Source of the DNA: Gaiellaceae bacterium
GTDB lineage: Bacteria > Actinomycetota > Thermoleophilia > Gaiellales > Gaiellaceae
Reading direction: 5' to 3'
Length of the DNA: 64,000 nucleotides
NCBI GenBank assembly: GCA_035999905.1
Contig: DASYGK010000027.1
Location: 11,709 to 75,708, forward strand
Part shown: piece after piece, positions 34,325 through 63,370 of the stretch
Layout: each line of letters starts with the position of its first letter
Position numbering within the stretch: the first letter of the stretch is position 1
Made by a program: the position numbers and the translations under genes
The notes under the pieces: model-generated
Seen by the model: the letters and a program-made list of their open reading frames with translations, nothing else
Databases searched by the model: none
What the model was told of the DNA's origin: nothing

Positions 34325-35503
34325 TCAAACGTGCTCGAGACCGACGTAGTTCTCCGCGAGGCTCGTCGCGGCGGCGGTCGAGGTGGTGACGTACCGGAGC
34401 TGTGCGAGCTGGAGCTTCAGGTCGAACGCGTCGGCGTCCGGTGCGTTGTGGAGCATCGTCGTCATCCAGAAGGAGAAATGCTCGGCACGCCACACGCGGC
34501 GCAGACACGCCGCCGAATAGCCGTCGAGCCCGGCGGTGCTGCCGCGGTCGTACCACTCGATCAGCGCGTCGGCGAGCACACGGACGTCGTGCTCGGCGAG
34601 GTTCAGGCCCTTCGCACCGGTCGGAGGGACGATGTGCGCGGCGTCGCCTGCGAGGTAGAGGCGCCCGTGCTGCATCGGCTCGGCGACGAAGCTGCGCATG
34701 CCGGTGACGCTCTTCTCGAGCACGGGCCCTTCCGCGAGCGTCCAGCCGTCGAGGGCCGTGCGCGCCTGCAGCTCCTCCCAGATGCGGTCGTCAGGCCACT
34801 CATCGAGGTCCTCGTCGGGGCGGCACTGGATGTACAGGCGGCTGCGGGTCGGCGAGCGGAGGCTGAGCAGCGCGAATCCGCGCGGGTGGTGCGTGTATAC
34901 GAGCTCGTCGGAGGAGGGCGGGACGTCGGCGAGGATCCCGAGCCAGCCGAACGGGTACTCGCGCTCGAACGTGCGCAGCACCGCTTCGATCGCGGGGCGG
35001 CACACGCCGTGGAAGCCGTCGCAGCCGGCGATCACGTCGCAGTCGATGCGGTGCTCTTCGCCCTCGTGCTCGTAGGTCACGTGCGGGGCCTCGCTCTCGA
35101 GGTCGTGAACCTCGACGTGCGACGTCTCGAAATGCAGCGGCAGCCCGGCGGCGAGACGTGCGGCGATCAGATCCTTGACGACCTCCGTCTGCCCGTAGAC
35201 CACGATCGTCCGCCCGCCGGTGAGCTCGCTCATCGGGATGTAGTGCCGCTCCGAGTCGAACTGAAGATGGATGCCGTGATGGACGATCCCCTCGCGCTGC
35301 AGCCGGTCGGCGACTCCCGCGCGCTCGAGCAGGTCGACCGTGCCCTGTTCGAGCACGCCCGCGCGGACGCGCGCCTCGACGTAGTCCCGGCTGCGATCCT
35401 CGAGCACGACGGCCTCGATGCCGGCGACGTGCAACAGTTGCGCGAGCGTCAGGCCCGCAGGACCGGCGCCGACGATCGCGACCTGCGTCCGGGTTCGGCT
35501 CAC
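34325..35503 (-). CDS. pobA: 4-hydroxybenzoate 3-monooxygenase
   Basis: 392-aa tail of track ORF 34325..35740, from GTG 35503. It has the FAD fingerprint VAIVGAGPAGL, plus GCDGFHG and LAGDAAHIVPPTGAKGLN blocks typical of PobA. The start overlaps the pcaC stop by 4 nt. Confidence 0.9.
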   Translation of the reverse strand: MSRTRTQVAIVGAGPAGLTLAQLLHVAGIEAVVLEDRSRDYVEARVRAGVLEQGTVDLLERAGVADRLQREGIVHHGIHLQFDSERHYIPMSELTGGRTIVVYGQTEVVKDLIAARLAAGLPLHFETSHVEVHDLESEAPHVTYEHEGEEHRIDCDVIAGCDGFHGVCRPAIEAVLRTFEREYPFGWLGILADVPPSSDELVYTHHPRGFALLSLRSPTRSRLYIQCRPDEDLDEWPDDRIWEELQARTALDGWTLAEGPVLEKSVTGMRSFVAEPMQHGRLYLAGDAAHIVPPTGAKGLNLAEHDVRVLADALIEWYDRGSTAGLDGYSAACLRRVWRAEHFSFWMTTMLHNAPDADAFDLKLQLAQLRYVTTSTAAATSLAENYVGLEHV

Positions 35504-35862
35504 GACTCGGCGAGAACCTGCTGCGCGATCGCGAACGCGCGATTGGCGGCCGGCACGCCGCAGTAGATCGCCGCGTGCAGCAGGACCTCTTTGATCTCGT
35601 CCGGGGTCAGTCCGTTTCGGAGCGCTGCGCGCACGTGCATCGCGAGCTCTTCGTGATGGTTGAGTGCGACGAGCGCCGTGAGCGTGACCGCGCTGCGCGT
35701 CTTGCGGTCGAGGCCGGGCCGCGACCAGATCTCGCCCCACGCGTACCGGGTGATCAGATCCTGAAAGTCGGCGGTGAACTCGGTCGTGCCCGCGACGGCG
35801 CGGTCGACGTGCTCGTCGCCGAGCACCTCGCGGCGTACTTGCATTCCCTCGTCGTGGCTCAC
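35500..35862 (-). CDS. pcaC: 4-carboxymuconolactone decarboxylase
   Basis: 120-aa tail of track ORF 35500..37131. It shows the CMD-family pattern (ITRYAWGEIWSRPGLD.KTRS..TL..L......EL..H...AL.NG.T..EI.E.LLH.A.YCG.PAA). Confidence 0.88.
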   Translation of the reverse strand: MSHDEGMQVRREVLGDEHVDRAVAGTTEFTADFQDLITRYAWGEIWSRPGLDRKTRSAVTLTALVALNHHEELAMHVRAALRNGLTPDEIKEVLLHAAIYCGVPAANRAFAIAQQVLAES

Positions 35863-36545
35863 AGATGCTCCTTCAGGAGTTGGTTGAAGGCGTCGGGACG
35901 CTCGACGTTGGCGAGATGTGCAGCGACGTCGATCACCTCGTGCCGTGCGCCGGGGATGCGCGACGCGATCGCGGCGCCCGTGGCGGGCGGCGTCGTGGGG
36001 TCCTCGGCACCCGAGATCACGAGGGTCGGCACGGAGATCGCGGCGAGCTTCGCCTCGACGTCGAAGCGCGCGAGCAGCTCGCAGCAGCGTGCGTACCCCT
36101 CGGGGTCGATCGACAGCATCATCGCGCGGTAGCGCTCGACGTCGTCGAACGCGGGAGTGAACCAGCGCGGCAGGACCAGGTCGGCGACCGGCGCGAGGCC
36201 GCGGGCTCGTACCGTCGCTGCGCGCTCTTCCCAGCCCGCGGGCTCGCCGAAGCGCGGCGCGGTGCATGCGAGCACGAGCCTGTCGATCCGCTCGGGCGCG
36301 TCGAGCGCGAGCCGCATGCCGACGGCGCCGCCGAGCGACAGGCCGACGAAGGAGAACGTGTCGGCGTCGACCGTCTCGAGGACGTGTGCGGCGAGGTCGT
36401 CGACCGACTGCGCGTCCGACACGGGTGCGCCGCCGTGTCCGGGATGCTCGACGGCGATCACCTCGTGCTCCCGGAGTGCCGGAAGCTGCGGGTCCCACAT
36501 CGCCGCGGTCGAGCCGAGCGAGCCGCTGAGGACGACGGTGCTCAC
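35859..36545 (-). CDS. pcaD: 3-oxoadipate enol-lactonase (alpha/beta hydrolase)
   Basis: 228-aa tail of track ORF 35859..36815, from GTG 36545. It has the nucleophile elbow GLSLGG, and its position between pcaB and pcaC fits the call. Confidence 0.85.
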   Translation of the reverse strand: MSTVVLSGSLGSTAAMWDPQLPALREHEVIAVEHPGHGGAPVSDAQSVDDLAAHVLETVDADTFSFVGLSLGGAVGMRLALDAPERIDRLVLACTAPRFGEPAGWEERAATVRARGLAPVADLVLPRWFTPAFDDVERYRAMMLSIDPEGYARCCELLARFDVEAKLAAISVPTLVISGAEDPTTPPATGAAIASRIPGARHEVIDVAAHLANVERPDAFNQLLKEHL

Positions 36546-37702
36546 CCGCGGTAGAGCGCGAGCGCGCGGTCGACGAAGATGCCTGTTGCGCCGAGATAGT
36601 CGTCCGGCCCGGCGACCTCGACGCCGAGTCGGCGTGCCTCCGACAGCGTCTCGTCGGAGACGTTCGTGCGCATGCGGCCGGCATCGACCTGGAGCCCGTC
36701 GAGCGAGCGGCGGATCGCGGCCGCGGCCCCGCCTGCCGCCGCGAGCGCCGTCGAGAGCGCATGCCACTCGGCATGCCACGCGCCGGCCGCGCGCTCGTGC
36801 TCCTGCACGGCGCACTCATAGAGCAGCGCCGCGTTCGCTCGGGCGTGCCGCGCGCAGGCGTCCGCGAGGATCGCGTTCGTCGGGTTGCGCTTGTGCGGCA
36901 TCGTCGACGACGCGCCGCCGGCGGCTTCCCGCACCTCGCCGATCTCCGTCTGCGCGAGCAGGACGATGTCGCGGCCGATCTTCGCGGCCGCGCCGGCGGC
37001 GGCGGCGAGCGCGCCCGCGAGATCGGTGAGAGGCGTGCGGCGCGTGTGCCACGGCAGCGCCGGCTCCTGCAGGCCGAGTGCCTCTGCGTAGAGGCGGAGC
37101 ACCTCGGGGCCGTCGGCGCCGAGCGCCGCAAGCGTCCCGGCCGCGCCGCCGAGCTGCGCCGGAAGCACGACCGCGCGGAGCCGCGTGCGCGCGTCGAGCA
37201 CGCCGACGAGCCAGCCTGCCGCCTTGTACCCGAACGTCGTCGGCACCGCCTGCTGCAGGAGCGTGCGCGCCGCCATCACCGTTCCGCGATGGGCGTCCGC
37301 GAGGCCCGCGCACGCGGCGGCCGCGCCGTCGAGCTCCGCGTCGATCAGCACCAGCGCGCGCTTCGCCACGAGCATCGCCGCCGAGTCGAGGATGTCCTGG
37401 CTCGTCGCACCGTGATGGATGCAGCCGGCGTGCTCCTCGCTCACACCCGCGCGGAGGGCGCGCACGAGCGGCTCGACCGGATTGCCGGCGGAGCGGCCGT
37501 CGCGCGCGAGCTCCCCGGCGTCGTAGCCGCCGGCGTCGAGCGCGGCTGCGACGGCGGCCGCGGCGCCGGCGGGGAGGATCCCCGCGCGCTCCTCGGCGTC
37601 GACGAGCGCGCGCTCCGCGTCGAGCAGCGCTTCGAGCCACGCCCGGTCGGAGAGCGCGGCCGCGAGCTCGTCGGGGACGAAGATCGCCGTGAACGGGCTC
37701 AC
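36542..37702 (-). CDS. pcaB: 3-carboxy-cis,cis-muconate cycloisomerase
   Basis: 386 aa. It carries the fumarate-lyase superfamily signature SSTMPHKRNP and sits in pca operon context. Confidence 0.88.
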   Translation of the reverse strand: MSPFTAIFVPDELAAALSDRAWLEALLDAERALVDAEERAGILPAGAAAAVAAALDAGGYDAGELARDGRSAGNPVEPLVRALRAGVSEEHAGCIHHGATSQDILDSAAMLVAKRALVLIDAELDGAAAACAGLADAHRGTVMAARTLLQQAVPTTFGYKAAGWLVGVLDARTRLRAVVLPAQLGGAAGTLAALGADGPEVLRLYAEALGLQEPALPWHTRRTPLTDLAGALAAAAGAAAKIGRDIVLLAQTEIGEVREAAGGASSTMPHKRNPTNAILADACARHARANAALLYECAVQEHERAAGAWHAEWHALSTALAAAGGAAAAIRRSLDGLQVDAGRMRTNVSDETLSEARRLGVEVAGPDDYLGATGIFVDRALALYRG

Positions 37703-38178
37703 GTGGAGAAGAAGACCGTCTCGTGCAGGCCCTGCATGTGGATGTCGAAGCGCAAGGCCCCATCATCACGCTCCGCGACGAGCAGCGCACGATCTGCCTC
37801 GTCGAGCCCCGCGAGCACGGGGTCGGCCGCGTTCGCGTCCGCCTCGTCGGGGAAGTAGACGCGCGTGCGCTGGTGCTTCAGGAGGCCGCGCGCGAAGACG
37901 TAGACGTCGAGATGCGGCGCCTCGCCGGCCGGCGCCGCCGGCTTGGAGACGACGAACGTGAACTCCCCCGCCGGGTGCGTGCCGCAGCGTCCCCAGAGGC
38001 GCTCGACCGGCTGCCAGACCTCGATCATCCCGTCGACGATCGGCGCGCCGTCGCCGTCGAAGAGCGTGCCGCGCAGGACGATCGCCGCAGGGTCGCCCGC
38101 GGGGACGAGCTCGTTCTCGCTTCTGCGCGTGAGGCCGATCGAGTAGAAGGGGCCGACGGTCTGCGACGGCGTCTTCAC
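37699..38178 (-). CDS. pcaG: Protocatechuate 3,4-dioxygenase alpha subunit
   Basis: 159-aa tail of track ORF 37699..39147, from GTG 38178. TPSQTVGPFY N-terminus and intradiol dioxygenase fold blocks. Confidence 0.9.
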   Translation of the reverse strand: MKTPSQTVGPFYSIGLTRRSENELVPAGDPAAIVLRGTLFDGDGAPIVDGMIEVWQPVERLWGRCGTHPAGEFTFVVSKPAAPAGEAPHLDVYVFARGLLKHQRTRVYFPDEADANAADPVLAGLDEADRALLVAERDDGALRFDIHMQGLHETVFFST

Positions 38179-38894
38179 GACGACGGCTCCTCGACCGGTG
38201 TCGTGCCGCTGCCGCCGCGTCCGAGCACGATGTCCCAGCGATACGCGAGCGCCCACTCCGGCGTCGTCGTCGCGAGGTCGAACTGCGAGACGAGCAGCGC
38301 CCGCGCCTTCGGGTCGCGCACCGAATGGAAGATCGGATCGAACTCGAACAGCGGGTCGCCCGGGAAGTACATCTGCGTGACGACACGCTGCGTGAACGCG
38401 CGGCCGAAGACGGAGAAGTGGATGTGCGCGGGACGCCACGCGTTCTCGTGGTTGCCCCACGGATACGAGCCGGGCTTGATCGTGACGAAGCGGTAGCGGC
38501 CCTCCGCATCCGTGAGCACGCGGCCCGCGCCGGAGAAGTTGGGGTCGAGCGGCGCGGGGTGCTGGTCGACCTCGTGCCGGTAGCGGCCGCCGGCGTTCGC
38601 CTGCCACACCTCGACGAGCGTGCCGGGGATCGGCCGGCCGTCCTCGTCGACGACGCGGCCGCTGACGACGATCCGCTCGCCGAGCGGCTCGCCGTCGTGC
38701 TGCGCGGTGAGGTCGCCGTCGTGCTCCTCGAGCGCGTCCTCGCCGAAGACCGGGCCGTCGGGGGAGTGGAGCTCCTCGGGCAGCGTGACGAGCGGCCGCT
38801 TCGGCGCGCGCAGCCGCGTCGAGCGGTACCCCGGGTAGTCGACCTGGACCTCCGGGCCGAACGAGGGGTCGTCCGGCAGGACGATGTCGCTCAC
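38175..38894 (-). CDS. pcaH: Protocatechuate 3,4-dioxygenase beta subunit
   Basis: 239-aa tail of track ORF 38175..39698, from GTG 38894. Blocks include VEVWQANAGGRYRH, YRF.TIKPG.YPW and WRPAHIHFS (iron ligands). Confidence 0.9.
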   Translation of the reverse strand: MSDIVLPDDPSFGPEVQVDYPGYRSTRLRAPKRPLVTLPEELHSPDGPVFGEDALEEHDGDLTAQHDGEPLGERIVVSGRVVDEDGRPIPGTLVEVWQANAGGRYRHEVDQHPAPLDPNFSGAGRVLTDAEGRYRFVTIKPGSYPWGNHENAWRPAHIHFSVFGRAFTQRVVTQMYFPGDPLFEFDPIFHSVRDPKARALLVSQFDLATTTPEWALAYRWDIVLGRGGSGTTPVEEPSS

Positions 38895-39616
38895 TCGCGC
38901 CCCTTCGACTCGAGCGCGCGCAGCGTCTCGAGCTCGAAGTCGGTCGGCGGAGCCGTGACGCCGACGTCGTCTGCGACAGCCAGCTCCCAGCCGGTCGCGG
39001 CTCGAACGTCGTCGATCTCGACGCCGGGATGCACGCGCACGAGCGTAAGCTCGCCGTCGCGCGGCTCGAGCGTGCCCAGATCGGTGACGACGACGCGGAC
39101 GCGGTCGCCGAGGCTCGTCTTGAAGTCGAGCTCCTCGACGAACGCACGCGGCGTCTGCCGCAGCATCACGAACACGTCGGCGACCGATGTCGCGATCTCC
39201 GGTGCGCCGCCGCCGCCGGGAAGCCGCACGCTCGGACTGTCGTAGTCGCCGATCACGGTGCTGTTGAGATTGCCATGACGGTCGATCTGCGCGGCGCCGA
39301 GGAAGCCGACGTCGATCCGGCCCGCCTGGAGCCAGTACGCGAACATCTCCGGGACGGAGACGACGGCGTCCGCGGTCTCGGCAAGCTCGCCGTCGCCGAT
39401 CGAGAGCGGAAGCTTGGTCGGCTTCGCGCCGATCGTGCCGCTCTCGTACACGAGCACGCAGTTCGGCGCGTGCGTGCGGCGCGCGAGATTCGCCGCGACG
39501 CTCGGCAGGCCGATCCCGACGAAGCAGACGTCGCCGTTCGCGAGGCGCCGCGCCGCCTCGACGGCCATCATCTCGTCGGATGTGAACGTCAGCGGCTGCT
39601 CGGAGGTCGCGGTCAT
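38891..39616 (-). CDS. pcaJ: 3-oxoadipate:succinyl-CoA transferase subunit B
   Basis: 241-aa tail of track ORF 38891..40003, from ATG 39616. It is a CoA-transferase family I beta subunit (VYESG active-site Glu region, GAAQID.HGN.N). Confidence 0.85.
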   Translation of the reverse strand: MTATSEQPLTFTSDEMMAVEAARRLANGDVCFVGIGLPSVAANLARRTHAPNCVLVYESGTIGAKPTKLPLSIGDGELAETADAVVSVPEMFAYWLQAGRIDVGFLGAAQIDRHGNLNSTVIGDYDSPSVRLPGGGGAPEIATSVADVFVMLRQTPRAFVEELDFKTSLGDRVRVVVTDLGTLEPRDGELTLVRVHPGVEIDDVRAATGWELAVADDVGVTAPPTDFELETLRALESKGRE

Positions 39617-40425
39617 GCAGCGACGGCCCCGAGCACGTGCTCCTGCATCCACGCCGTGAATGTCGCACGGTCGCGGCTGATCCCGTCCCACGCCGCATAG
39701 AACTCGTTGTCGCGGTCGTAGTACCCGTGCGCGTACGACGGCCGCGCGCCGCCCGGTGCCTCGGCGACCACGTCGATCACCCACGTCGGCAGCACGACCG
39801 CGCCGGGACGCGGCTCGAGCTCGTCGACGACCTCTTCGACCGTGACTATCGACCGCGCGGACGCGAGCACTGTCTCCTTCTGCACGCCGGTGATTCCCCA
39901 CAGCTGCACGTTCCCCCGACGGTCTGCCTGCTGCGCGTGGATGATGCCGACGTCCGGCCGCAGCGCCGGGACGGCCGAGAGCTCCTCGCCGGTGAACGGG
40001 CACGTGACCGTGGCGACGCGCGTGCGCGCAACGAGATCGGTGCCTGCGTAACCGCGCAGGACGCCGAACGGCAGCGCGGCCGCTCCGGCCGCGTACGCCG
40101 CCGCCATGCCGGCATGCGAGTGCTCCTCGAGCTCGAGAGGGGCGGGCCAGCCGTGCTCGACCGCGTCTCGCAGGCGGTGCAGCGAGCCGACGCCCGGGTT
40201 GCCGCCCCAGCTGAAGACGAGCTTCCGCGCCACGCCCATGCCGATCATCTGGTCGTAGACGAGGTCGGGCGTCATGCGGACGAGCGTCAGCTCGCGCAGG
40301 CGCTGCCGGATCAGCTCGTGACCGGCGGCGTTCGGGATCAGGTGCGTGAAGCCCTCGAGCGCGACGGTGTCCCCGTCGTGCACGAGCTCGCGTACGGCCT
40401 CCGAGAGAGTGACGATCTCCGCCAT
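39613..40425 (-). CDS. pcaI: 3-oxoadipate:succinyl-CoA transferase subunit A
   Basis: 270 aa. CoA-transferase alpha-subunit pattern. It is the first gene of the overlap-coupled pca operon. Confidence 0.85.
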   Translation of the reverse strand: MAEIVTLSEAVRELVHDGDTVALEGFTHLIPNAAGHELIRQRLRELTLVRMTPDLVYDQMIGMGVARKLVFSWGGNPGVGSLHRLRDAVEHGWPAPLELEEHSHAGMAAAYAAGAAALPFGVLRGYAGTDLVARTRVATVTCPFTGEELSAVPALRPDVGIIHAQQADRRGNVQLWGITGVQKETVLASARSIVTVEEVVDELEPRPGAVVLPTWVIDVVAEAPGGARPSYAHGYYDRDNEFYAAWDGISRDRATFTAWMQEHVLGAVAA

Positions 40426-40580
40426 CGGCTCAGAACGGGTGAGGGTGACCCACCCTGGACCGCTTGGCCGCGCGTACCTCAGACCTGACGCTCGTCACGT
40501 CGTCTCCTCTCCCGTGGCGGATCGGCAGCAAGCGTGGCGGGTGGGCTGCCGCCCTGTCAAGGCAGCGTACGAGCAGGCCT

Positions 40581-40596
40581 TCCCGTTCGTCAAGAC
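40581..40596. promoter_or_regulatory. Box A: TCCCGTTCGTCAAGAC (shared 16-nt box; minus-strand TTGACG -35 of a candidate pca promoter)
   Basis: 15/16 identical to Box C at 54799-54814. On the minus strand, TTGACG (40588-40593), an 18-nt spacer and TACGCT (40564-40569) point toward pcaI. Confidence 0.5.
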
Positions 40597-40636
40597 ACCG
40601 TTCTGTTTAGTCGAACAACTTTTTACGTCAGGACTG

Positions 40637-40652
40637 TTCCATTCGTCAAGAC
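40637..40652. promoter_or_regulatory. Box B: TTCCATTCGTCAAGAC (second copy of the shared box)
   Basis: 14/16 identical to Box A, 56 nt away, in the same orientation. On the minus strand, TTGACG, an 18-nt spacer and TAAAAA form a second leftward promoter candidate. Confidence 0.45.
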
Positions 40653-40675
40653 AGTGATCTAGTATCCGGGACGTG
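40637..40675 (+). promoter_or_regulatory. Candidate rightward promoter in the pca / liv-type divergent region
   Basis: TTCCAT (40637-40642), 17-nt spacer, TAGTAT (40660-40665), 7 nt, then GTG 40673. This is the same architecture as the iclR promoter candidate at 54819-54856. Confidence 0.4.
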
Positions 40676-40969
40676 ACAGCGGCGACGGAGACGTTGGGCG
40701 GGACGCTGGACCCATCCGGCCCGCCGCGGGTGAGGGCGTGGGACCGGGCCGGCCCGGCGGGTGCGAGCCCGCCGTGCCTTGACTCTTCGCCGGAGGCCGA
40801 TTTACGGTCGCCGGGCACCAGCGTACGACGCGAGTCCCTCCGCATGGCCTCGACGCGAGGAGGACGCACTTGACGAGATCGTGATCGGAGGGGCGCGGCG
40901 GCTCTCGCGTCGCGCCGACCGCCTCGTGGCTCAAGTCAAAGGAAGCGACAGATCCAGAGGAGAGACCTG

Positions 40970-42277
40970 ATGAGATCGACGAAGATCAAAATCGGTGTTG
41001 CGTTCGCCGCCAGCGGGCTTCTCGCGCTGATGCTGACGGCGGCCGCCATCGGTGCGGGAAGCGCGGCACGCGTCGGCTCCGGAACGGCGTCCGCGACGAA
41101 GTCCGTGTGCGGGCTGGGGACCGGGAAGAAGGCAACCGGAACGCCGATCAAGCTCGGCGGCATCGACATGCTCATCCCCGGCGTGGACTTCACCACGATC
41201 GGCAAGGTCGCGCAGGCGTACTTCAACTGCGTCAACGACAACGGCGGCATTCACGGTCGCCCGATCAAGTACATCCTCTACAACGAGCAGCTCAACCCGG
41301 CGCAGGAAGCGTCGCTCGCCAGGAAGCTGATCCAGAGCGACAAGGTCGTCGGGATCGTCGGGAACACGAGCTTCGCCGAGTGCGGGACGAACGCCAAGTA
41401 CTACGCGAGCAAGGGCTTCGTCGTGATCGGCGCGGGCGTCCAGGCGGAGTGCTACAGCACGCCGGCGTTCGCCGAGGTGAACAACGGGCCGCGGTACAGC
41501 AACGTCGGTGCGGCGCAGGCACTCATCAAGGCCGGCGTGAAGAAGCTCGCGATTGCATCGCCGGACACGATCTCCGCGTACGCGGACGGCGGGCCGGCTC
41601 TCGTCGCGCAGAAGGCGGGTATCCCGGTCAAGATCTTCCCGACCCACCTGCCGGTCACCGACGCCACCTCGCAGCTGCTGCAGATGTACCAGTTCGCCGG
41701 TGAAGGCGGAGGCATCCTGCTCGACTTCACCCCCGATACCGCTCCGGCGTTCATGAAGGCCGCCGAGGCGCAGAACATCGTCGACAAGGTGAAGTGGGGC
41801 TCGTCCACCCCGATCGCGAACACGTTCATGGCCGGGCAGTTCTCGCCCGCGTTCGACGGTCATCTGTGGATCGACAACGAGTTCAGCAACGTCGACCCGA
41901 CCGTCGGACCCGACTCGGCGCTGATGTTCCAGGTGCTCAAGAAGTACGCGCCGACGATCGCTCCGCAGGCGTTCGGGCAGATGGGCTTCCTCGACGGGAA
42001 GTTCGCCGTCAACGCGCTGATGAGCGTCAAGGGCGCGATCACCGCGAAGTCGTACAACGCGGCGGTCAGGGCGCTCAAGAACCAGAAGAGCGACATGTTG
42101 TGCGCCCCCTTCTACGTGGGGAACCTCGCGTACCACATCCCGAACAACTCGGACATCATCGTCGACTACAAGAACGGCGCCGTCGTCGTCAAGCAGACGT
42201 GCTTCCGGATTGAGGCGGTCGACAAGGCGATCAGCCAGACGCGGGTCTGGGAGAAGAAGTTCCACCTGCAAGGCTGA
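40970..42277 (+). CDS. ABC transporter substrate-binding protein, LivJ/Leu-Ile-Val-binding (type I PBP) family
   Basis: 435 aa. GAGGAGAG lies before ATG 40970. It has a signal peptide with a hydrophobic core (GVAFAASGLLALMLTAAAIGAGSA) and LivJ-like blocks (IKLGGI, GG..GR.I, VVGIVG). Confidence 0.85.
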   Translation: MRSTKIKIGVAFAASGLLALMLTAAAIGAGSAARVGSGTASATKSVCGLGTGKKATGTPIKLGGIDMLIPGVDFTTIGKVAQAYFNCVNDNGGIHGRPIKYILYNEQLNPAQEASLARKLIQSDKVVGIVGNTSFAECGTNAKYYASKGFVVIGAGVQAECYSTPAFAEVNNGPRYSNVGAAQALIKAGVKKLAIASPDTISAYADGGPALVAQKAGIPVKIFPTHLPVTDATSQLLQMYQFAGEGGGILLDFTPDTAPAFMKAAEAQNIVDKVKWGSSTPIANTFMAGQFSPAFDGHLWIDNEFSNVDPTVGPDSALMFQVLKKYAPTIAPQAFGQMGFLDGKFAVNALMSVKGAITAKSYNAAVRALKNQKSDMLCAPFYVGNLAYHIPNNSDIIVDYKNGAVVVKQTCFRIEAVDKAISQTRVWEKKFHLQG

Positions 42278-42313
42278 TCGCGGAGTGACGATCAGGGTGT
42301 CCGGAGGTGTCGA

Positions 42314-43243
42314 TTGAGCTACGTGCTCGGCTTCAGCGTGTTCGGCGTCGACTGGCAGTTCGTCAAGCCGTTCATCGTCATCGGTCTCGCGTTCGGCGGC
42401 GTGTACGCGCTGTCCGGCGTCGGGCTGGTCGTGCTGTACCGGGCAACGGGTGTGCTCAACGTCGCGTTCGGAGCCATCGGCGCCGCCGGCGCCCTGATCG
42501 CCTATTACCTGCTGAACCACACGAGCTGCCCCGACTGGCTTGCGTTCTCGATCTGCGTCGCCTTCGGCGGGGTCGTCAATCTCGCCTACGGCATGATCTT
42601 CGGCCCCGCCTTCGCGCGACGCGATCCGCTCGTGAAGATGATGGGCACGCTCGGGCTCGCACTCATCCTCCTCGGGCTGATGGCGTGGCGGGCGCCGGCC
42701 GGCGGTGCGTTCGCGCGCTTCCTGCCGCTGCCGAGCTCCTCGCACCACTTCACCATCCTGAAGACCACCGTGAGCCTCACGCAGGTGATCGCGATCGGGC
42801 TCGCGCTCGCGATCACCACAGCAGTCAGCGTCTTCCTCCGCGTGACGAAGCTCGGCACGGCGATGCGGGCGCTCGCGAACGACCGTGACGTGACGGCCAC
42901 GCTCGGCGTGCCCGTCCGGAGGGTCGAGGCCGCCGCCTGGTTCGGCTCCGGCCTCGCCTGCGGAGCTGCCGGCCTGCTGCTGCCCGATCTCCTCACGTCG
43001 CTCGACTACTCGGCGCTCACGTTTCTCGTCATCTCCTCGCTCGCCGCCGCGCTGATCGGGCGGCTGCGCTCCCTCTGGGTCACGATGTTCGGCGGGCTCG
43101 CCGTCGGCGTCGCGCAGTCGGTGCTCAGCCCGTACGGGAACGTCTCCGCGTACCGCTCGGCGGCGCCGTTCGTGCTGGCGATCGTCGCGCTCCTCTACCT
43201 CTCGCGCAGGCGCGTCGTCACGATCTCGCGGGCCACGGGGTGA
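42314..43243 (+). CDS. Branched-chain-type ABC permease (LivH family)
   Basis: 309 aa with about 8 TM segments. The LivH pattern is present (GLAFGGVYALSGVGLVVLY, NVAFGA, TKLGTAMRALANDRD). Confidence 0.88.
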   Translation: MSYVLGFSVFGVDWQFVKPFIVIGLAFGGVYALSGVGLVVLYRATGVLNVAFGAIGAAGALIAYYLLNHTSCPDWLAFSICVAFGGVVNLAYGMIFGPAFARRDPLVKMMGTLGLALILLGLMAWRAPAGGAFARFLPLPSSSHHFTILKTTVSLTQVIAIGLALAITTAVSVFLRVTKLGTAMRALANDRDVTATLGVPVRRVEAAAWFGSGLACGAAGLLLPDLLTSLDYSALTFLVISSLAAALIGRLRSLWVTMFGGLAVGVAQSVLSPYGNVSAYRSAAPFVLAIVALLYLSRRRVVTISRATG

Positions 43244-44331
43244 GGGCTGCAGGCGCGTCCACCGGCCGCGCCGACCGGGCGCGCGCCGTGCAGAGCATCG
43301 GTAGGGCGAACGTCATCCGTGGCGTCGTCGCCGTCGCGCTGCTTGCGATCGCGATCTTCGCGCTGCCGCACCTCGCGGGCGCCGACTGGGTGACGACGTT
43401 CACGAGCGTCGCGATCTATTCCGTCGTCGCGCTCGGGTTCGGGATCCTCTACGGCAGGGTCGGCCTCATCTCGCTCGGCCAGGTCGCGCTGCTCACGATC
43501 GGCTGCTGGGTGGGTGCGCGGATCGCGTATGCGACCTCGCTGCCGTTCCCGCTGCTTCTGCTGGCGACCGGTGGCATCACCTGCGCGATCGGCGTGCTCG
43601 TCGGCCTCCCGGCGTTGCGCCTCTCCGGCCTCTATCTCGCGCTCGTCACGCTCATGTTCGCCGGTGCGACGACCGTCGTCCTTTCGGTCACCGACTTCCC
43701 GAACGGCGCCGGCGGCTTCACGGGCCGCTCCGCCACCGGTGCGTTGACCACCAGCACGCCGCCGGTGCGGAGGCCGTCGTGGGCGGTCGGGGATGTCGCG
43801 TACTACCGCTACACCGTGATCGTCGCAGCGCTGCTCTTCCTGCTCGCGCTCCTCCACGTCTCGGGCAAGCCGGGCCGCGCGTGGGCGTCGATCCGGGAGA
43901 GCGAGCCGGCGGCGCTCGCCGCGGGCGTCAACATCACGCTCTACAAGCTCTGGGCCTTCGCGCTCGCGTCCTTCGTTACCGGCGTCGCGGGCTGCCTGCT
44001 CGCGGCCCAGGTCGGCGTGCCGCGGGCGATCACGTTCCAGACGCAGGACTCGCTCACGCTCGCCGCAACCGCGCTGATCGGGGGCATCTTCAGCATCTGG
44101 GGTGCGGTCGTCGCAGGCGTCTTCAACCAGCTCCTGCCCTTTCTGTTTCAGGCCGTCTGGGGCCTCAATCCGAACTTCCTGCTGATCCTCTTCGGCGCCG
44201 GACTGCTGCAGGTGCTGCTGACCGCGCCGGGCGGCCTCGTCGAGCAGTTCCCGAAGGACATGGCGAACCTCGGCCGCCTGCTGTACCAGAGCGCGCGCCG
44301 CCTCGTGGGCGGGACGAAGAAGGCGTCGTGA
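43240..44331 (+). CDS. Branched-chain-type ABC permease (LivM family)
   Basis: 363 aa. GTGA overlap with the upstream gene. LivM blocks are present (YGRVGLISLGQVA, LPALRLSGLYLALVTLMFA, GRAWASIRESE.AA...G). Confidence 0.88.
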   Translation: MRAAGASTGRADRARAVQSIGRANVIRGVVAVALLAIAIFALPHLAGADWVTTFTSVAIYSVVALGFGILYGRVGLISLGQVALLTIGCWVGARIAYATSLPFPLLLLATGGITCAIGVLVGLPALRLSGLYLALVTLMFAGATTVVLSVTDFPNGAGGFTGRSATGALTTSTPPVRRPSWAVGDVAYYRYTVIVAALLFLLALLHVSGKPGRAWASIRESEPAALAAGVNITLYKLWAFALASFVTGVAGCLLAAQVGVPRAITFQTQDSLTLAATALIGGIFSIWGAVVAGVFNQLLPFLFQAVWGLNPNFLLILFGAGLLQVLLTAPGGLVEQFPKDMANLGRLLYQSARRLVGGTKKAS

Positions 44332-45044
44332 TCGAGGTCGCCGGTCTCACCGTCCGCTTCGCGGGCGTCACGCCGATCGACGACATGAGCGTGACGTTCC
44401 CCGGCGGCACGTGCGGCCTCATCGGCCCGAACGGCGCCGGCAAGACGACCTTCTTCAACGTGCTCAGCGGGTTCGTCAAGCCCGCAGCGGGCACGGTCAG
44501 CGCATTCGGAGAGAACGTGCTCGCGATGGCCGACTTCAGGCGCGCGCGCTGGGGACTGCGCCGGACGTTCCAGACCGAGATGGCGATCGAGAAGCTTTCC
44601 GTCTACGACAACGTTGCGATGATCCACGAGCACTCGGGTGCGAAGCGCGCGTCGCGCCGGCCCGACGTGCTGAGCGCGATCGAGTTCGTCGGTCTCGACG
44701 CGTCGCCGAAGGCCAAGGTCGGGACGCTCGGTGCGCGCGAACGGCGGCTCGTCGAGGTGGCGCGCGCCGTGGTGGGAAGCCCCCGCGTCGTCCTCCTGGA
44801 CGAGCCGGCGGCCGGCCTGCCGGACGAGGAGACGGAACAGCTCGGCGCGGTGATCAAGCGTATCCCGGAGCAGTTCGGCGCGCTCGTGATCCTCGTCGAC
44901 CACGACATGAGCCTCGTCTCGGGCTGCTGCGAGACGACGGCGGTGCTCGACTTCGGCAAGCTGATCGCCTCGGGACCGACGGCGCACGTGCTGCGCGACG
45001 AGCACGTGATGCGCGCGTACCTCGGTACGGCGGAGGAGCTGTGA
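44328..45044 (+). CDS. ABC ATP-binding protein (LivG family)
   Basis: 238-aa tail of track ORF 43779..45044, from GTG 44328 (GTGA overlap). Walker A GPNGAGKTT, Walker B VLLDEPAAGL. Confidence 0.9.
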   Translation: MIEVAGLTVRFAGVTPIDDMSVTFPGGTCGLIGPNGAGKTTFFNVLSGFVKPAAGTVSAFGENVLAMADFRRARWGLRRTFQTEMAIEKLSVYDNVAMIHEHSGAKRASRRPDVLSAIEFVGLDASPKAKVGTLGARERRLVEVARAVVGSPRVVLLDEPAAGLPDEETEQLGAVIKRIPEQFGALVILVDHDMSLVSGCCETTAVLDFGKLIASGPTAHVLRDEHVMRAYLGTAEEL

Positions 45045-45808
45045 CGGACGCCGGCCCGACGCTGCGCCTCGACGGTCTCACGGTCGCGCGGGGAGGGCGG
45101 CCGGTCGTGCGCGACGTCTCGCTCGAGATCCCGCCGGCGCAGGTGACGACGCTGCTCGGCGCGAACGGCGCCGGCAAGTCGACGCTCGTCCTGTCGGTCG
45201 CGGGCCTGCTGCGGCCGAGCGCGGGGCGCGTGCTGCTGGGCGACCGCGACCTCACGCGCCTGCGGCCCGAGCAGGTGCGCACGGCGGGTGTCGCGGTCGT
45301 GCCGGAGGGGCGCCGCCTGCTGCCGGAGCTCACCGTGGAGGACAACCTCCGTGTCGCGACGTACGCGCTGTCGAGCGCGCACGCGAAGGAAGGCATCGCG
45401 TACGCACTCGAGCTCTTCCCCGAGCTCGAGAAGCGCTGGACAGCGCCGGCGCGGCTGCTCTCCGGCGGCGAGCAGCAGATGGTCGTGCTCGCGCAGGCGC
45501 TCGCCGCCCGGCCGAAGATCCTGCTCGTCGACGAGCTCTCGCTCGGTCTAGCGCCGGTCGTCGTCAAGCGTCTCGTCCCGACGCTCCAGACGGTGGCTGC
45601 GGAGGGTGTCGGCGTCCTGCTGATCGAGCAATTCGCACACGTCGCCCTGGCGCTCGCGGAGACGGCGTACGTCATCGAGGGAGGCCGCATCCGCTACAGC
45701 GGCACCTCGCAGAAGCTGAGGGACGAGCCCGAGCTCCTGCGTTCGGCCTACCTGCTCCGCGACATGGAGGCCAAGGCGACGCCCGGCCTCGACGTCGACC
45801 TGATCTAG
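45041..45808 (+). CDS. ABC ATP-binding protein (LivF family)
   Basis: 255-aa tail of track ORF 44411..45808, from GTG 45041 (GTGA overlap). Walker A GANGAGKST, signature LSGGEQQM, Walker B LLVDELSLGL. Confidence 0.9.
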   Translation: MTDAGPTLRLDGLTVARGGRPVVRDVSLEIPPAQVTTLLGANGAGKSTLVLSVAGLLRPSAGRVLLGDRDLTRLRPEQVRTAGVAVVPEGRRLLPELTVEDNLRVATYALSSAHAKEGIAYALELFPELEKRWTAPARLLSGGEQQMVVLAQALAARPKILLVDELSLGLAPVVVKRLVPTLQTVAAEGVGVLLIEQFAHVALALAETAYVIEGGRIRYSGTSQKLRDEPELLRSAYLLRDMEAKATPGLDVDLI

Positions 45809-46815
45809 GGCACGAGCACGGCGCGGCCGGTGACCTCGCCGTCGCGGAGCTTCGCGAGCACGTCGTTCACGTCGGCGAGCGGATGGGTCTCGGTCTTCAG
45901 GACGACCTTCCCTGCGGCATGGAGCTGCAGGAGCTCCCAGAGATCGACCCACGTGCCGACGAGGTTGCCGACCACCGCGTGCTCGTTGACGACGAGCGCG
46001 CCCGACGGGATCGAGATCGTTCCGCCGTAGCCGATCACCGAATACGTCCCGCCGCGCGCGAGGATCGCCGCCGAGTCCGCGTGCGTCTGGTCCGTGCCGA
46101 CGAAGTCGAACACGATGTCCGCTCCTCGTCCGCCGGTCGCGTCGCGCACCGCGTCCGCGCTCGGGACGACCTCGTCCGCGCCGAGCTCCGCGGCGAGGCG
46201 GCGCCTGCGCTCGTCCGTGTCCACCGCGATCACCGTGCTCGATCCGAGCGTGCGCACGAGTTGCAGCGCGATGTGCCCGACGCCGCCAACGCCGATCACG
46301 GCCGCCGTCGTCCCCGGGGTCGCGAGATGTGCGAGCTTTCGCACCGCGTGGTACGCGGTGAGCCCCGCGTCGGCGTGCGGTGCGACCGCTGCCGGCTCGA
46401 CACCGGCGGGTAGCCGGACGAGCGAGCGCTCCGACACGAGCACGTAGTCGGCGAACCCGCCGTCGACGGAGAGCCCCGTGAACTGATGACGGTCGCAGTG
46501 CATGTCGTTGCCGCGGCGGCACGCGACGCAGAGGCCGCAGCTGTACGGCGGATAGACGAGCACGGCGTCGCCCGGTGCGACCGTCGTCACCCCGTCACCC
46601 GTCTCCTCGACCCAGCCCGCGTTCTCGTGGCCGAGCACGCGCGGCAGCGTCACGCCGGCGGGCTCCATCAGGCCCTCCATCGCGTGCAGGTCGGTGGCGC
46701 AGACGCCGGCGCCGCCGATCCGCACGAGCACGTCGTTCGGGCGCGCGACCTCGGGCACGGGACGCTCGACGAGCTCGAGCGGCCGATGGTACTCGCGCAT
46801 GAGTGCGGCTCTCAT
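45805..46815 (-). CDS. Zinc-dependent alcohol dehydrogenase (MDR family)
   Basis: 336-aa tail of track ORF 45805..47736, from ATG 46815. Catalytic zinc block GVCATDLH...GHENAGWV, structural zinc Cys cluster CGLCVACRRGNDMHC, Rossmann motif VIGVGGVGH. Confidence 0.88.
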   Translation of the reverse strand: MRAALMREYHRPLELVERPVPEVARPNDVLVRIGGAGVCATDLHAMEGLMEPAGVTLPRVLGHENAGWVEETGDGVTTVAPGDAVLVYPPYSCGLCVACRRGNDMHCDRHQFTGLSVDGGFADYVLVSERSLVRLPAGVEPAAVAPHADAGLTAYHAVRKLAHLATPGTTAAVIGVGGVGHIALQLVRTLGSSTVIAVDTDERRRRLAAELGADEVVPSADAVRDATGGRGADIVFDFVGTDQTHADSAAILARGGTYSVIGYGGTISIPSGALVVNEHAVVGNLVGTWVDLWELLQLHAAGKVVLKTETHPLADVNDVLAKLRDGEVTGRAVLVP

Positions 46816-48419
46816 GCCCTGAACTCCGCGTCCTGCGCAACGGTGACCTCGAGCACGAGCGGCTCCTTTCGCGTAGGCAGGCTCGGGACGATCTCGTCGA
46901 GCGCCGCGTGCAGCTCGTCGAGCGTCTCGATCTCGCGCGCCGCGCAGCCGAAGCTGCGCGCGAGCCCGGAGATGTCGACGTTCACTGCGGGCCACGGCCC
47001 CGAGCCGCCGTGGATCTCGGCGAGGCGGTCCATGATCGCGTAGCCGCCGTTCGAGAGGACGACGAAGAGCGCGCCCGCGTCGTACTGGGCGGCGCTCCAG
47101 AGCGCTTGGATCGAGTAGAGCGACGATCCGTCGCCGACGATCGCGACGACCGGGCGCGCCGGGAGCGCCATCCGCAGGCCGGCGGCCGCGGGCATCGCGA
47201 AGCCGAGGCCGCCCATCGCGGGGCTGAGCGACGCGAGCGGGACGCGCGCGGGGATGCGCGCGAGCAGCTCGGCGCGGCTCGACGGCGACTCCTCGATCAC
47301 GATCGCGTCGCGCGGCAGCCGTTCCGCGAGCGCGTGCAGGACGTGTGCGACGCGCATGGGCTCTCCGGCGGCGGGCGGAGGCGGCGGCGCGGACGGCGCG
47401 AACGGCTCTCCGGGCGGTGCGGTGCGCGCCGGCACGAGCTTCGCGAGCTCGGCGCACACGGCGGCGGGGTGCGCGATCACCGCGAGATCGGCTGCGCTGC
47501 GGTGCACCTCCGCCGCGTCGCGGCTGACGACGGCGACGCGCGTGCCGGCCTCGACGAACGGCCCCGGCGCGAACGGGTACTGGCGAAAGGCGGGGCCGCC
47601 GACGACGAGCAGCACGTCGTATGGTGCGAGCACGTCGCGAAGGCGTCTGCGGTCGGCGGGGAGGTGGCCCGCGAAGAGGGGATGGTCCTGGGGGAAGCCG
47701 GCACTGCCGCCGAACGGCTCCTGCCAGACGGGGCACGCGAGCCGCTCGGCCAGTGCGAGCAGCGCGTCCCAGCTCTCCGGCTCGTCGGCGAACGAGCCTG
47801 CGACGAGCGCGGGGCGCTCCGAGCCGGCGAGGAATGCGGTGAGCGCGCCCATCGTCGCCGGGTCGACTCCGGCGGCGTGGAGCACGCGCCGCGGTGCGAG
47901 CCGCTCCGCGGGGTCACCGGCTTCGGCCATCCAATCGTCCATCGGCACGATCACGACCGCCGGGCCGCGGCCGGCGACGGACTCGTGGTACGCGCGTGCG
48001 ACAGCGGCAGGCACGTCCTGCGCGCGCACGGGCTCGTCGACCCACACGGGATACTCGCCCGCCAGGCCGCGCAGCTTGCCCGCGAGGAACGGCTGCGCCG
48101 CGAGGTGGCGGCGGTCCTGCTGGCCCACGATCACGACGAGCGGCGCGCGGTTCACGCGCGCGGTGGCGAGGGCCGAGATGCCGTTCGCGTAACCGGCCGT
48201 CGTGTGCAGGATCGCGAGCGCCGGCCGGCCGCGGCCGAGCGCATAGCCGATCGCCATTCCGACGACCGAGCTCTCGTGCAGGCCGAGCACGAAATGCAAA
48301 TCGTCCGGCAGGTCCGCGAGGAGCATGATCTCGGTCGAGCCCGGGTTCGCAAAGAGCGTCGTGAGCTCGTATTCGCGCAGGACGTCGAACGTCGCGTCGC
48401 GGACCGTCCTGACCGTCAT
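46812..48419 (-). CDS. Thiamine-diphosphate enzyme, benzoylformate decarboxylase-like
   Basis: 535 aa. The N-terminal block (LFANPGSTEI..L.......FVLGLHE..VVGMA.GYA) resembles benzoylformate decarboxylase (MdlC) as I remember it. TPP-binding motif IVGDGSSLYS...SNGGY. Confidence 0.8.
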   Translation of the reverse strand: MTVRTVRDATFDVLREYELTTLFANPGSTEIMLLADLPDDLHFVLGLHESSVVGMAIGYALGRGRPALAILHTTAGYANGISALATARVNRAPLVVIVGQQDRRHLAAQPFLAGKLRGLAGEYPVWVDEPVRAQDVPAAVARAYHESVAGRGPAVVIVPMDDWMAEAGDPAERLAPRRVLHAAGVDPATMGALTAFLAGSERPALVAGSFADEPESWDALLALAERLACPVWQEPFGGSAGFPQDHPLFAGHLPADRRRLRDVLAPYDVLLVVGGPAFRQYPFAPGPFVEAGTRVAVVSRDAAEVHRSAADLAVIAHPAAVCAELAKLVPARTAPPGEPFAPSAPPPPPAAGEPMRVAHVLHALAERLPRDAIVIEESPSSRAELLARIPARVPLASLSPAMGGLGFAMPAAAGLRMALPARPVVAIVGDGSSLYSIQALWSAAQYDAGALFVVLSNGGYAIMDRLAEIHGGSGPWPAVNVDISGLARSFGCAAREIETLDELHAALDEIVPSLPTRKEPLVLEVTVAQDAEFRA

Positions 48420-51353: not shown

Positions 51354-51370
51354 GGTCTCGATCGCCTCCT

Positions 51371-53286: not shown

Positions 53287-53295
53287 TCCGCCCGC

Positions 53296-54663: not shown

Positions 54664-54798
54664 GGCTGCGAACGACTCCTTGTCTCGGCCGATTCCTCGG
54701 GTTGGTGGAGCTCCCGGACGTCCCAGCTGTCAGGATTCCGGTCGTGCAGGTGTCGGCCCGCCGTCCGGGCACACCGAGCCGGACACTCTCAAGGCACC

Positions 54799-54814
54799 TC
54801 CCGTTTGTCAAGAC
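54799..54814. promoter_or_regulatory. Box C: TCCCGTTTGTCAAGAC (third copy of the shared 16-nt box)
   Basis: It lies in the divergent region between the demethylase operon and iclR, 5 nt upstream of the iclR -35 candidate. The minus strand reads GTCTTGACAAACGGGA, with a perfect TTGACA facing the demethylase gene. The octamer TCAAGGCA (54789-54796) also recurs at 40557-40564. Confidence 0.5.
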
Positions 54815-54818
54815 GGTG

Positions 54819-54856
54819 TTCCAATTGATGGAACGCTGCGCTAGGATGCGCGCGTG
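54819..54856 (+). promoter_or_regulatory. Candidate leaderless promoter of the iclR gene, with a GTTCCA/TGGAAC palindrome
   Basis: TTCCAA (54819-54824), 17-nt spacer, TAGGAT (54842-54847), 6 nt, then GTG 54854. The inverted repeat GTTCCAattgaTGGAAC (54818-54834) overlaps the -35 and the spacer. Confidence 0.4.
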
Positions 54857-62971: not shown

Positions 62972-63330
62972 GCGATGCCGAGGTACGACCAGTCCTTCGC
63001 GAGCCGCGTCGCGAGGGGCGTGTTGAAGTCGATCTCGGCCCAGGCGCCCTCGACGTCGACTCCGGGTGCGACGAAATCGCTGTAGAACGCCTCGATCGCG
63101 AGCGCGCGGACGTAGAGGAAGTCCGGTGTCCCGACGTGGTCTCCGACGTCGCCGGAGGCGACCGTCGCGAAGGCGGCGAGCGTGCCTGCGCGCATGCCGT
63201 CGTCCATCCGCGCGAGCAGCGCGTCGAGGTACACCGCGGGCCTGACGCGGGCCGACCCCGGGACGATCGCGTCGCAGACGCGCTCGACCGATTCCGCCGT
63301 CGCCGCGTCCAGCACCTTGAGGTCGACCAT
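62968..63330 (-). CDS. Small subunit partner of the GMC oxidoreductase (gluconate 2-dehydrogenase subunit-3-like)
   Basis: 120-aa tail of track ORF 62968..63699, from ATG 63330. It overlaps the GMC gene by 4 nt. No twin-arginine signal is visible. The family assignment is tentative and rests on size, context and the A.E.FYSD block. Confidence 0.5.
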   Translation of the reverse strand: MVDLKVLDAATAESVERVCDAIVPGSARVRPAVYLDALLARMDDGMRAGTLAAFATVASGDVGDHVGTPDFLYVRALAIEAFYSDFVAPGVDVEGAWAEIDFNTPLATRLAKDWSYLGIA

Positions 63331-63370
63331 CGCCCGATGATAAATCAGGCAGACTGATATCGGAAATGCG

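Follow-up and report, generated by a model that had tools for sequence, protein, structure and literature searches.

This study concerns a 64,000-nucleotide stretch of a Gaiellaceae genome (contig DASYGK010000027.1; hereafter the window) and a 16-nucleotide box within it, which occurs twice between the beta-ketoadipate pathway (pca) operon and a divergent transporter operon and once between an O-demethylase operon and the gene of an IclR-family regulator, IclR1. Genes were called by third-position GC content, given the high G+C content of the window (about 71%), and they were annotated with Pfam and NCBIfam. This annotation bore out the gene assignments of the original prediction, which had been made from the sequence alone, for the pca operon, the liv-type transporter, the demethylase, and the IclR regulator (Table 1). 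The demethylase gene (53296-54663, minus strand) encodes a LigM/DesA-like, tetrahydrofolate (THF)-dependent O-demethylase that scored 639 bits against the LigM equivalog model (cut-off 580).

Table 1. Genes, promoters, and candidate regulator sites at the two control regions. Matrix columns refer to the weight matrix built from the ortholog palindromes.
Feature	Position	Strand	Matrix rank	Matrix score (bits)	Sequence and remarks
pcaI-pcaJ-pcaH-pcaG-pcaB-pcaD-pcaC-pobA operon	34325-40425	−			predicted target of the box A module
ABC transporter of the SBP-livH-livM-livG-livF type	40970-45808	+			divergent from the pca operon
LigM/DesA-like demethylase operon	45805-54663	−			predicted target of the box C module
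IclR1, IclR-family regulator	54854-55663	+			Pfam HTH_IclR and IclR_C; divergent from the demethylase operon
Box A	40581-40596 (17-mer, 40580-40596)		12	5.5	TCCCGTTCGTCAAGAC (17-mer, TTCCCGTTCGTCAAGAC; scored sequence ends with box A); predicted site 1 (composite operator, pca side)
Palindrome A	40600-40616		2	17.2	GTTCTGTTTAGTCGAAC; GTT-11-AAC IclR-type, 3 nt after box A; predicted site 2
Box B	40637-40652 (17-mer, 40636-40652)		3	16.2	TTCCATTCGTCAAGAC (17-mer, GTTCCATTCGTCAAGAC); complete GTT-11-(G)AC IclR-type site
Tandem partner of box B	40656-40672		7	9.0	GATCTAGTATCCGGGAC; 3 nt downstream of box B; covers the putative iclR2 promoter −10 TAGTAT (40660-40665)
Box C	54799-54814 (17-mer, 54798-54814)		10	7.2	TCCCGTTTGTCAAGAC (17-mer, CTCCCGTTTGTCAAGAC; scored sequence ends with box C); predicted site 1 of the ligM/iclR composite operator
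Palindrome C	54818-54834		1	27.5	GTTCCAATTGATGGAAC; GTT-11-AAC IclR site; predicted site 2; left arm coincides with the −35 of the putative iclR promoter
Putative pcaI promoter	40564-40593	−			−35 TTGACG (40593..40588), 18-nt spacer, −10 TACGCT (40569..40564)
Putative ligM-operon promoter	54783-54811	−			−35 TTGACA (54811..54806), 17-nt spacer, extended −10 TG-n-GAGTGT (54791..54783)
Putative iclR promoter	54842-54856	+			−10 TAGGAT (54842-54847); GTG start 54854
iclR2 relic	40673-40711	+			GTG start and about 13 codons
Likely transporter (SBP-livHMGF) promoter	40779-40808	+			TTGACT-18-TACGGT, same in locus L077
Leader element	40857-40884	+			GAGGAGG and TTG-ACG-AGA-TCG-TGA (putative 4-codon mini-ORF); contains CTTGACGA
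ABC, ATP-binding cassette; SBP, substrate-binding protein; ORF, open reading frame.

Results

Occurrence of the box in the window and in related genomes

The coordinates, the sequences, and the common orientation of the three boxes, named A, B, and C from left to right, were all verified, with 15 of 16 positions identical between A and C and 14 of 16 between A and B. When the window was searched with the 16-mer, allowing up to two mismatches, exactly three matches were obtained against 0.06 expected, and none of 100 shuffles reached three. The sequence GTCAAGAC was found five times, where 1.4 occurrences were expected.

For comparison, we assembled 79 Gaiellaceae loci around homologs of the regulator from species-representative genomes, amounting to 1.41 Mb. 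A 14-mer core of the box (up to two mismatches) was present in 54 copies in this DNA, while permuted 14-mers averaged 2.7 copies and the reversed motif had 2. Nearly all of these copies share one orientation and are found in the intergenic DNA immediately 5' to an iclR gene, divergent from an operon headed by ligM or by a TIM-barrel gene. The motif is therefore not found at similar frequency throughout the related DNA, coding regions included. As had been proposed, the boxes appear to be promoter or operator elements confined to the control regions of aromatic-catabolic genes. A search of the available literature library found no earlier description of the motif string or of aromatic gene regulation in Gaiella.

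A palindrome next to boxes A and C

The original prediction had treated the 16-mer as the whole site. This view had to be given up, because an IclR-type palindrome that had gone unnoticed lies exactly 3 nt to the right of both box A and box C. The pattern GTTC-N9-GAAC occurs only twice in the 64-kb window, as palindromes A and C. Box, gap, and palindrome (17 + 3 + 17) form a module of 37 bp in which the centers of the two sites are 20 bp apart. Palindrome A is kept at three related loci (L077, L046, and L076), and L077 also has an A-like copy of the box at the same place.

Comparison of upstream regions revealed that the box stands at the same place upstream of about 45 orthologs of the regulator gene, from about 45 Gaiellaceae species. 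The shared architecture is TGCCCGTTTGTCAAGAC, 3 nt, GTTCC-N7-G(G/A)(A/G)AC, about 7 nt, TA(G/C)GAT, 6 to 8 nt, and an ATG or GTG start. All 44 distinct orthologous regions that were compared have this architecture, with the counterpart of palindrome C at offset +20, and the 17-nt box core TGCCCGTTTGTCAAGAC was the most invariant block across 48 such regions. A class of IclR palindromes termed GTT-11-AAC (GTTYCRYW3RYGRAAC) has been described as over-represented in Actinobacteria (Suvorova & Gelfand 2021; PMC8222616). The arms of both palindromes fit the GTTYC-N7-GRAAC criterion of that class, with a center that departs from the RY-W3-RY consensus, and by their sequence we assign palindromes A and C to this class, IclR group 1.

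We also scanned the 63,984 17-mers of the window with a position weight matrix (PWM) trained solely on the ortholog palindromes (ranks and scores in Table 1). The 17-mers of boxes A and C score high in the exact register only, 20 bp center-to-center from the palindrome. Most likely, the repeated box is one half of a two-part IclR-type docking site that overlaps the promoters of genes for the catabolism of lignin-derived aromatics.

Two additional matches to the matrix, at 54720-54736 in the ligM leader and at 54889-54905 within iclR (where the sequence encodes SQSLER), are not kept in the orthologs, and we set them aside as the product of chance or coding constraint. We also dropped a model in which the box is a plain direct half-site repeat (GTTYG 15 bp before GTTCC), since the 17 + 3 + 17 layout better fits both the extent of conservation and box B. 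In some orthologs (L019:9900-10000 and L007:9900-10000), the box is followed by two successive palindromes (for example, ATTCCAATGATCGGAAC and then GTTCCAATTGATGGGAC), which is a three-site variant of the operator.

Putative divergent promoters at the box

It had been suggested that the boxes are −35 regions, IclR operators, or both. Read on the minus strand, each of the three boxes has the sequence GTCTTGAC(A/G)A. At boxes A and C, this reading puts a TTGACR hexamer, as the original prediction had pointed out, facing pcaI and ligM, and at the distance (17-18 nt) expected of a −35 from TAnnnT-like hexamers that are candidate −10 elements. The pairing recurs in relatives on the pcaI side, with TTGACA-18-TACGTT in L077 and TTGACA-18-TAGCGT in the pcaI-divergent group-4 loci. 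On the ligM side, the CTCTCA(A/G) block of the −10 region is kept at the same spacing in the orthologs. Relative to the putative catabolic promoters, the box would extend from about −22 to −38 and the palindrome from about −41 to −57.

Further evidence for the −35 role came from three loci (L016, L029, and L032) at which the gene upstream of iclR is co-directional. The box is absent there, with the palindrome and TAGGAT still in place, which supports a tie between the box and a divergent promoter. Together, these sequence comparisons favor the answer "both," with an IclR-type regulator as the best candidate binder.

The iclR transcript itself looks leaderless. The database model of IclR1 (P0001, 254 aa) starts at TTG 54899, but the length of the orthologs (267 aa) and the TAGGAT-6 nt-GTG arrangement argue for a leaderless start at GTG 54854.

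A scan with PcaI in metagenomes covered 80 loci and yielded only three further modules. Most relatives have an aldehyde dehydrogenase gene before pcaI, so that the promoter lies farther upstream. In the window, the end of the pcaI leader (40433-40450, minus strand) reads ...GHPHPF-stop, similar to the ...GHPFPF-stop C terminus of the aldehyde dehydrogenase encoded just before pcaI in most relatives. This stretch may be a relic, about seven codons long, of a deleted aldehyde dehydrogenase gene; a tblastn search upstream of pcaI found nothing of a larger remnant beyond these codons.

Box B and a second regulator gene

Box B had been considered equivalent to boxes A and C. Instead, it is a separate 17-bp site in the promoter of a second regulator paralog, iclR2. 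Its GTTCCA lies where the −35 of the putative iclR2 promoter would be, and its geometry is that of the GTTCC-N7-GAGAC sites of the iclR2 orthologs (L055 and L057-60) and of many iclR1 palindromes. The block GTTCCATTC....(G/A)AGAC-agt-(A/G)GTCTAGTATCCGGGAC-GTG in L077, L055, and L057-60 represents an apparently leaderless iclR2 promoter, of which GTCTAGTATCCGGGAC is conserved in all iclR2-type loci. In these relatives, iclR2 is intact, lies beside the pca genes, and appears to form a single transcription unit with the SBP-livHMGF transporter that follows it; its product is 64-73% identical to IclR1. Loci L077 and L019 are 17 kb apart on one contig, so that genome has the layout of the window with both regulators.

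What remains of iclR2 in the window is short. Positions 40628-40711 align at 86% identity with L077 9908-9990, which comprise the iclR2 promoter and the first 13 or so codons. Missing is the coding body, which measures about 780-840 bp in L077; homology resumes in the spacer between iclR2 and the SBP gene. The leftover 66-codon frame (40673-40873) is not IclR-like, and a tblastn search of the window for a further IclR gene found only the one at 54854-55663. Four independent assemblies (11 contigs) have exactly the same 544-bp intergenic region, so the deletion is no assembly artifact. We conclude from these alignments that the iclR2 coding body has been deleted here and that its predicted operators have been retained as orphans.

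Similarly, L034:5040-5480 contains an orphan B-type box with a TAGTAT promoter and an iclR2-like start (ATGAATTCGGGG...), with no IclR gene behind it. The two cases, in the population of the window and at L034, suggest that iclR2 has been lost recurrently.

The regulator and its proposed regulon

The best model for IclR1 was TIGR02431 (the PcaR/PcaU/PobR subfamily), with 241.8 bits. This score is below the cut-off of 284.75, and we therefore call IclR1 PcaR-like and do not count it as a member of the subfamily. Its homologs come from Gaiellaceae and Thermoleophilia metagenome-assembled genomes (MAGs), are mostly 267 aa long, and carry the JGI label "pca regulon regulatory protein."

According to the original prediction, IclR1 controls the demethylase operon and the pca and transporter genes as one regulon. 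One part of the evidence makes this plausible. IclR1 is linked to the pca operon, 14 kb away in the window; the boxes at the two loci are nearly identical; the IclR1 group and the IclR2 group have one and the same recognition helix, LSRSTAHRYVATL; and L050 has a canonical pcaIJ-HG-B-D-C-pobA operon with an IclR1-type regulator and a C-type module immediately divergent from it. The other part points away from it, since the pca/transporter region of relatives has a regulator of its own, iclR2. On sequence grounds, we put the odds that both loci form a single regulon under IclR1 at roughly even.

A complete module (CGATTTGTCAAGAC-agc-GTTCGATTATGTGGAAC) is also present at L034:13740-13800 (minus strand), 3.7 kb from iclR1 and with no regulator gene adjoining it. 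This case indicates that remote targets exist, and the module is a candidate remote site of the regulon.

Other motifs in the control regions

The octamer TCAAGGCA occurs three times in the window (0.3 expected), and it lies where it had been reported, at 40557-40564, at 54789-54796, and inverted at 40775-40782. Its proposed role as a companion motif of the boxes was not sustained: the orthologs do not keep the whole octamer but only CTCTCA(A/G), and the three copies belong to different features. The inverted copy overlaps the putative promoter pair of the transporter genes at the −35.

The same was true of CTTGACGA, which is indeed at 40869-40876. A partial inverted box was ruled out, since the sequence is part of a conserved Shine-Dalgarno sequence and mini-ORF in the transporter leader; thus neither TCAAGGCA nor CTTGACGA is a copy of the box. 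The start, length, and stop of the mini-ORF are kept in the alignment of the window with L077, L055, L057, L058, and L059, with AGR at the third codon. GAGGAGG and the mini-ORF may thus constitute a translational control element.

No terminator was found when the two control regions were scanned. An Rfam scan of the same regions found no RNA family, and we therefore rejected a riboswitch or leader explanation of the boxes.

Neighboring genes

In addition to the demethylase, the operon at 45805-54663 encodes a TIM-barrel protein, two E1 alpha/beta pairs, a benzoylformate-decarboxylase-like protein, and an alcohol dehydrogenase. This enzyme set is unusual. The TIM-barrel protein is xylose-isomerase-like with weak similarity to QuiC, the two E1 pairs are without an E2 or E3, the benzoylformate-decarboxylase-like protein is a thiamine pyrophosphate enzyme, and the alcohol dehydrogenase is of the zinc type. 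The set is widely kept beside this regulator in Gaiellaceae. An acetoacetate-CoA-ligase-like gene follows iclR.

The pcaI and pcaJ genes of the window (38891-40425) encode atypical CoA-transferase subunits, which scored 34 bits with TIGR02429 (cut-off 128.5) and 61 bits with TIGR02428 (cut-off 243.6). L050 and L077 have canonical pcaIJ genes of the scoA/scoB type at the same operon position.

Another aromatic-looking operon lies at 57636-64000 on the minus strand, with genes for a DUF1932/NAD-binding protein, an RraA-like aldolase, a PIG-L protein, a DUF6282 protein, a VOC-type dioxygenase, and a GMC oxidoreductase. A methylenetetrahydrofolate-reductase-like gene, starting at 63371, could recycle the methyl-THF made by the demethylase. 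Farther upstream, before the catabolic island, are genes for a sigma-70 family protein of full length (regions 1.2-4) and for two GGDEF-domain signaling proteins, one of them with GAF and HD domains (16871-17938, 22441-24237, and 25062-27728); they are unrelated to the boxes.

Discussion

The results reported above are best explained, with a probability that we put at about 65%, if the repeated element is a 37-bp bipartite operator of PcaR-like IclR regulators, with the box doing double duty as a −35 element, and if iclR2 has been lost from the pca side. Boxes A and C would then be the promoter-proximal site 1 (17 bp) and the GTT-11-AAC palindromes site 2. The distance of 20 bp between their centers is about two helical turns and would fit a dimer of dimers. 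Site 1 would double as the −35 of the leftward catabolic promoters (pcaI and ligM), and site 2 would overlap the −35 of the rightward, apparently leaderless regulator promoter, leading to autoregulation. We hypothesize that a bound tetramer blocks both divergent promoters and that an aromatic effector (vanillate, protocatechuate, or a pathway intermediate) releases it. Box B and its tandem partner over the TAGTAT −10 would be the auto-operator of iclR2. The surviving IclR1 probably reads the orphan operators, which would place the demethylase and the beta-ketoadipate genes in one regulon. That iclR2 was deleted precisely and recurrently, that its operators were kept, and that IclR1 now reads the orphan sites so that two regulons have fused is, as a complete scenario, a tentative and rather doubtful proposition.

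Several observations weigh against this operator model. The ortholog boxes bear a weak likeness to the palindrome matrix: 4 of 44 reach at least 5 bits, and their consensus scores 0.26 bits, which is still within the top 0.06%. For this reason, we infer that the box is a second IclR site from its geometry and its co-occurrence with the palindrome. Conservation is also higher in the box than in the palindrome, although an auxiliary site would usually be the less conserved of the two; we attribute this to the two constraints under which it would stand, as a −35 hexamer and as a regulator contact. A strict E. coli-type sigma-70 scan of both control regions (at least 4 of 6 positions per hexamer) called no promoter, so the putative promoters are based on conservation and on the less stringent TAnnnT rule for Actinobacteria. 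A location directly upstream of the −35, like that of the palindrome here, is also typical of IclR activator sites. The arms of the palindrome are GTTCT/CGAAC on the pca side and GTTCC/GGAAC on the ligM side, and IclR1 may therefore bind the pca-side site poorly. Genomes with both paralogs (L019/L077) keep one regulator per locus, which speaks against a single regulon. Finally, a copy of iclR2 could lie elsewhere in the genome, beyond the window.

The best-surviving alternative concerns boxes A and B. They may be read by no regulator, leaving the pca and transporter genes constitutive, or by a copy of iclR2 elsewhere, in which case IclR1 would serve the demethylase operon and itself only. We regard this as a substantial possibility, although one short of an even chance. 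Catabolic genes often become constitutive through the loss of a repressor, the relatives with both paralogs have a separate regulator for each locus, and the pca-side palindrome deviates at the fifth arm position. What speaks for reading by IclR1 is that the recognition helices are identical, that boxes A and C agree at 15 of 16 positions, that an IclR1-type regulator is found on the pca operon in L050, and that the A and B sites are intact and high-scoring.

With regard to the direction of control, we lean toward repression, because a conserved consensus or near-consensus −35 lies under the site and because actinobacterial PcaR proteins (PMC9582017) and DesX are repressors, DesX being an IclR-type regulator of a THF-dependent demethylase operon. 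In the alternative, the regulator at the palindrome and the box would recruit RNA polymerase to pcaI and ligM in the presence of the effector and would repress its own gene. This is possible, but we consider it less likely than repression. It is suggested by the kinship of IclR1, since the subfamily nearest to it, PcaR/PcaU/PobR, has activators as its proteobacterial members. PcaU, PobR, and VanR1 of R. opacus, an IclR-type vanillate regulator, are activators, PcaR of P. putida binds over the −35/−10 and yet activates, and activator sites are typically located just upstream of the −35. However, a strictly conserved consensus or near-consensus −35, here with site 1 on top of it, is the usual mark of a promoter that needs no activator and is held in check by a repressor, and the actinobacterial PcaR proteins and DesX named above repress. 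Moreover, if activation were required, the pca and transporter genes would have fallen silent with the deletion of iclR2, yet their reading frames look intact.

A further explanation is that the boxes are only strong −35 elements with their promoter context and that the regulator binds the adjacent palindrome alone. TTGACR at 17-18 nt from conserved −10-like hexamers, the disappearance of the box where there is no divergent gene, and the weak resemblance of the ortholog box consensus to the IclR matrix are all in keeping with it. We nevertheless judge it improbable. Invariance extends over 17 nt and includes 8 nt (AACGGGCA) in the spacer, where sigma-70 lacks base-specific contacts; the gap to the palindrome is fixed at 3 nt and the matrix match is register-specific; and box B agrees with box A at 14 of 16 positions without a conserved −10 partner on the minus strand (ACGGTG in L077). 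Least of all do we expect the box to be the site of another, unlinked factor, such as a global aromatic regulator or an alternative sigma factor: its conservation exceeds that of the palindrome, and it makes a poor palindrome itself, but across 1.7 Mb of related DNA nearly every copy adjoins an IclR-type palindrome, an iclR gene, or the relic of one, and no other regulator gene is linked to it in the window.

We next consider the bipartite operator model in the light of known IclR systems. PcaU and PobR of Acinetobacter baylyi and HmgR offer the closest parallel in layout: the regulators are of a related subfamily, the regulator gene is divergent from a beta-ketoadipate pathway operon, an extra element accompanies the palindrome at constant spacing toward the catabolic promoter, and the regulator controls its own gene, as we predict here. 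Three-box sites are known for PcaU, PobR, and HmgR, and the extra box is needed for PcaU binding (PMC8222616). In contrast to the 15-bp palindromes of these proteins (GTTCGAT-W-ATCGAAC), those described here are of the 17-bp GTT-11-AAC type, and the extra element is a full 17-mer with a consensus −35 rather than the 10-bp half-site repeat of those proteobacterial activators.

The predicted arrangement of two adjacent dimer sites, occupied by a tetramer, overlapping the core promoter, and subject to autoregulation resembles that of P. putida PcaR (at the pcaIJ −35/−10) and TtgV. In those systems, the sites cover the −35 and −10 of one promoter, whereas here they would cover the −35s of two divergent promoters, and the site sequences are unrelated. 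Among actinobacterial regulators, PcaR is known from R. opacus and from C. glutamicum, where it binds GTTCGC-N3-GCGAAC, GenR binds ATTCC-N7(5)-GGAAT, and PcaR and CatR repress. These systems share with ours the phylum, pca or other aromatic operons as targets, and TTCC/GGAA or GTTCG half-sites. They differ in that the present system is from Thermoleophilia (Gaiellaceae), would include a THF-dependent demethylase operon of the LigM type among its targets, and would embed a −35 in a bipartite site. DesX of Sphingobium sp. SYK-6, whose effectors are vanillate and syringate, is likewise an IclR-type regulator of a THF-dependent O-demethylase operon with an inverted repeat over the core promoter. 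It differs in its 18-bp repeat, which is over the −10 and has another sequence, in the position of its gene downstream of the target, and in having no autoregulation and no reported link to pca genes.

Taken together, these comparisons suggest that the element is a composite operator of the PcaR/PcaU/TtgV kind over divergent promoters, a known type in a fresh lineage. Because the mechanism is well precedented, it would not surprise a specialist; the retention of operators after recurrent loss of a paralog would be its only mildly unusual aspect.

The Gaiellaceae are abundant soil actinobacteria that have barely been cultured, and the organism considered here is represented by metagenome assemblies only. 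The operator model, in the form of a 37-bp site and a weight matrix, could be used to predict aromatic-catabolic regulons in many Gaiellaceae MAGs, and the regulator with its operator provides candidate parts for vanillate or protocatechuate biosensors. If the fusion of the two regulons is real, it would be a natural case of regulon merging by paralog loss in an uncultured soil lineage, which would have joined vanillate/syringate demethylation to the beta-ketoadipate pathway and to uptake.

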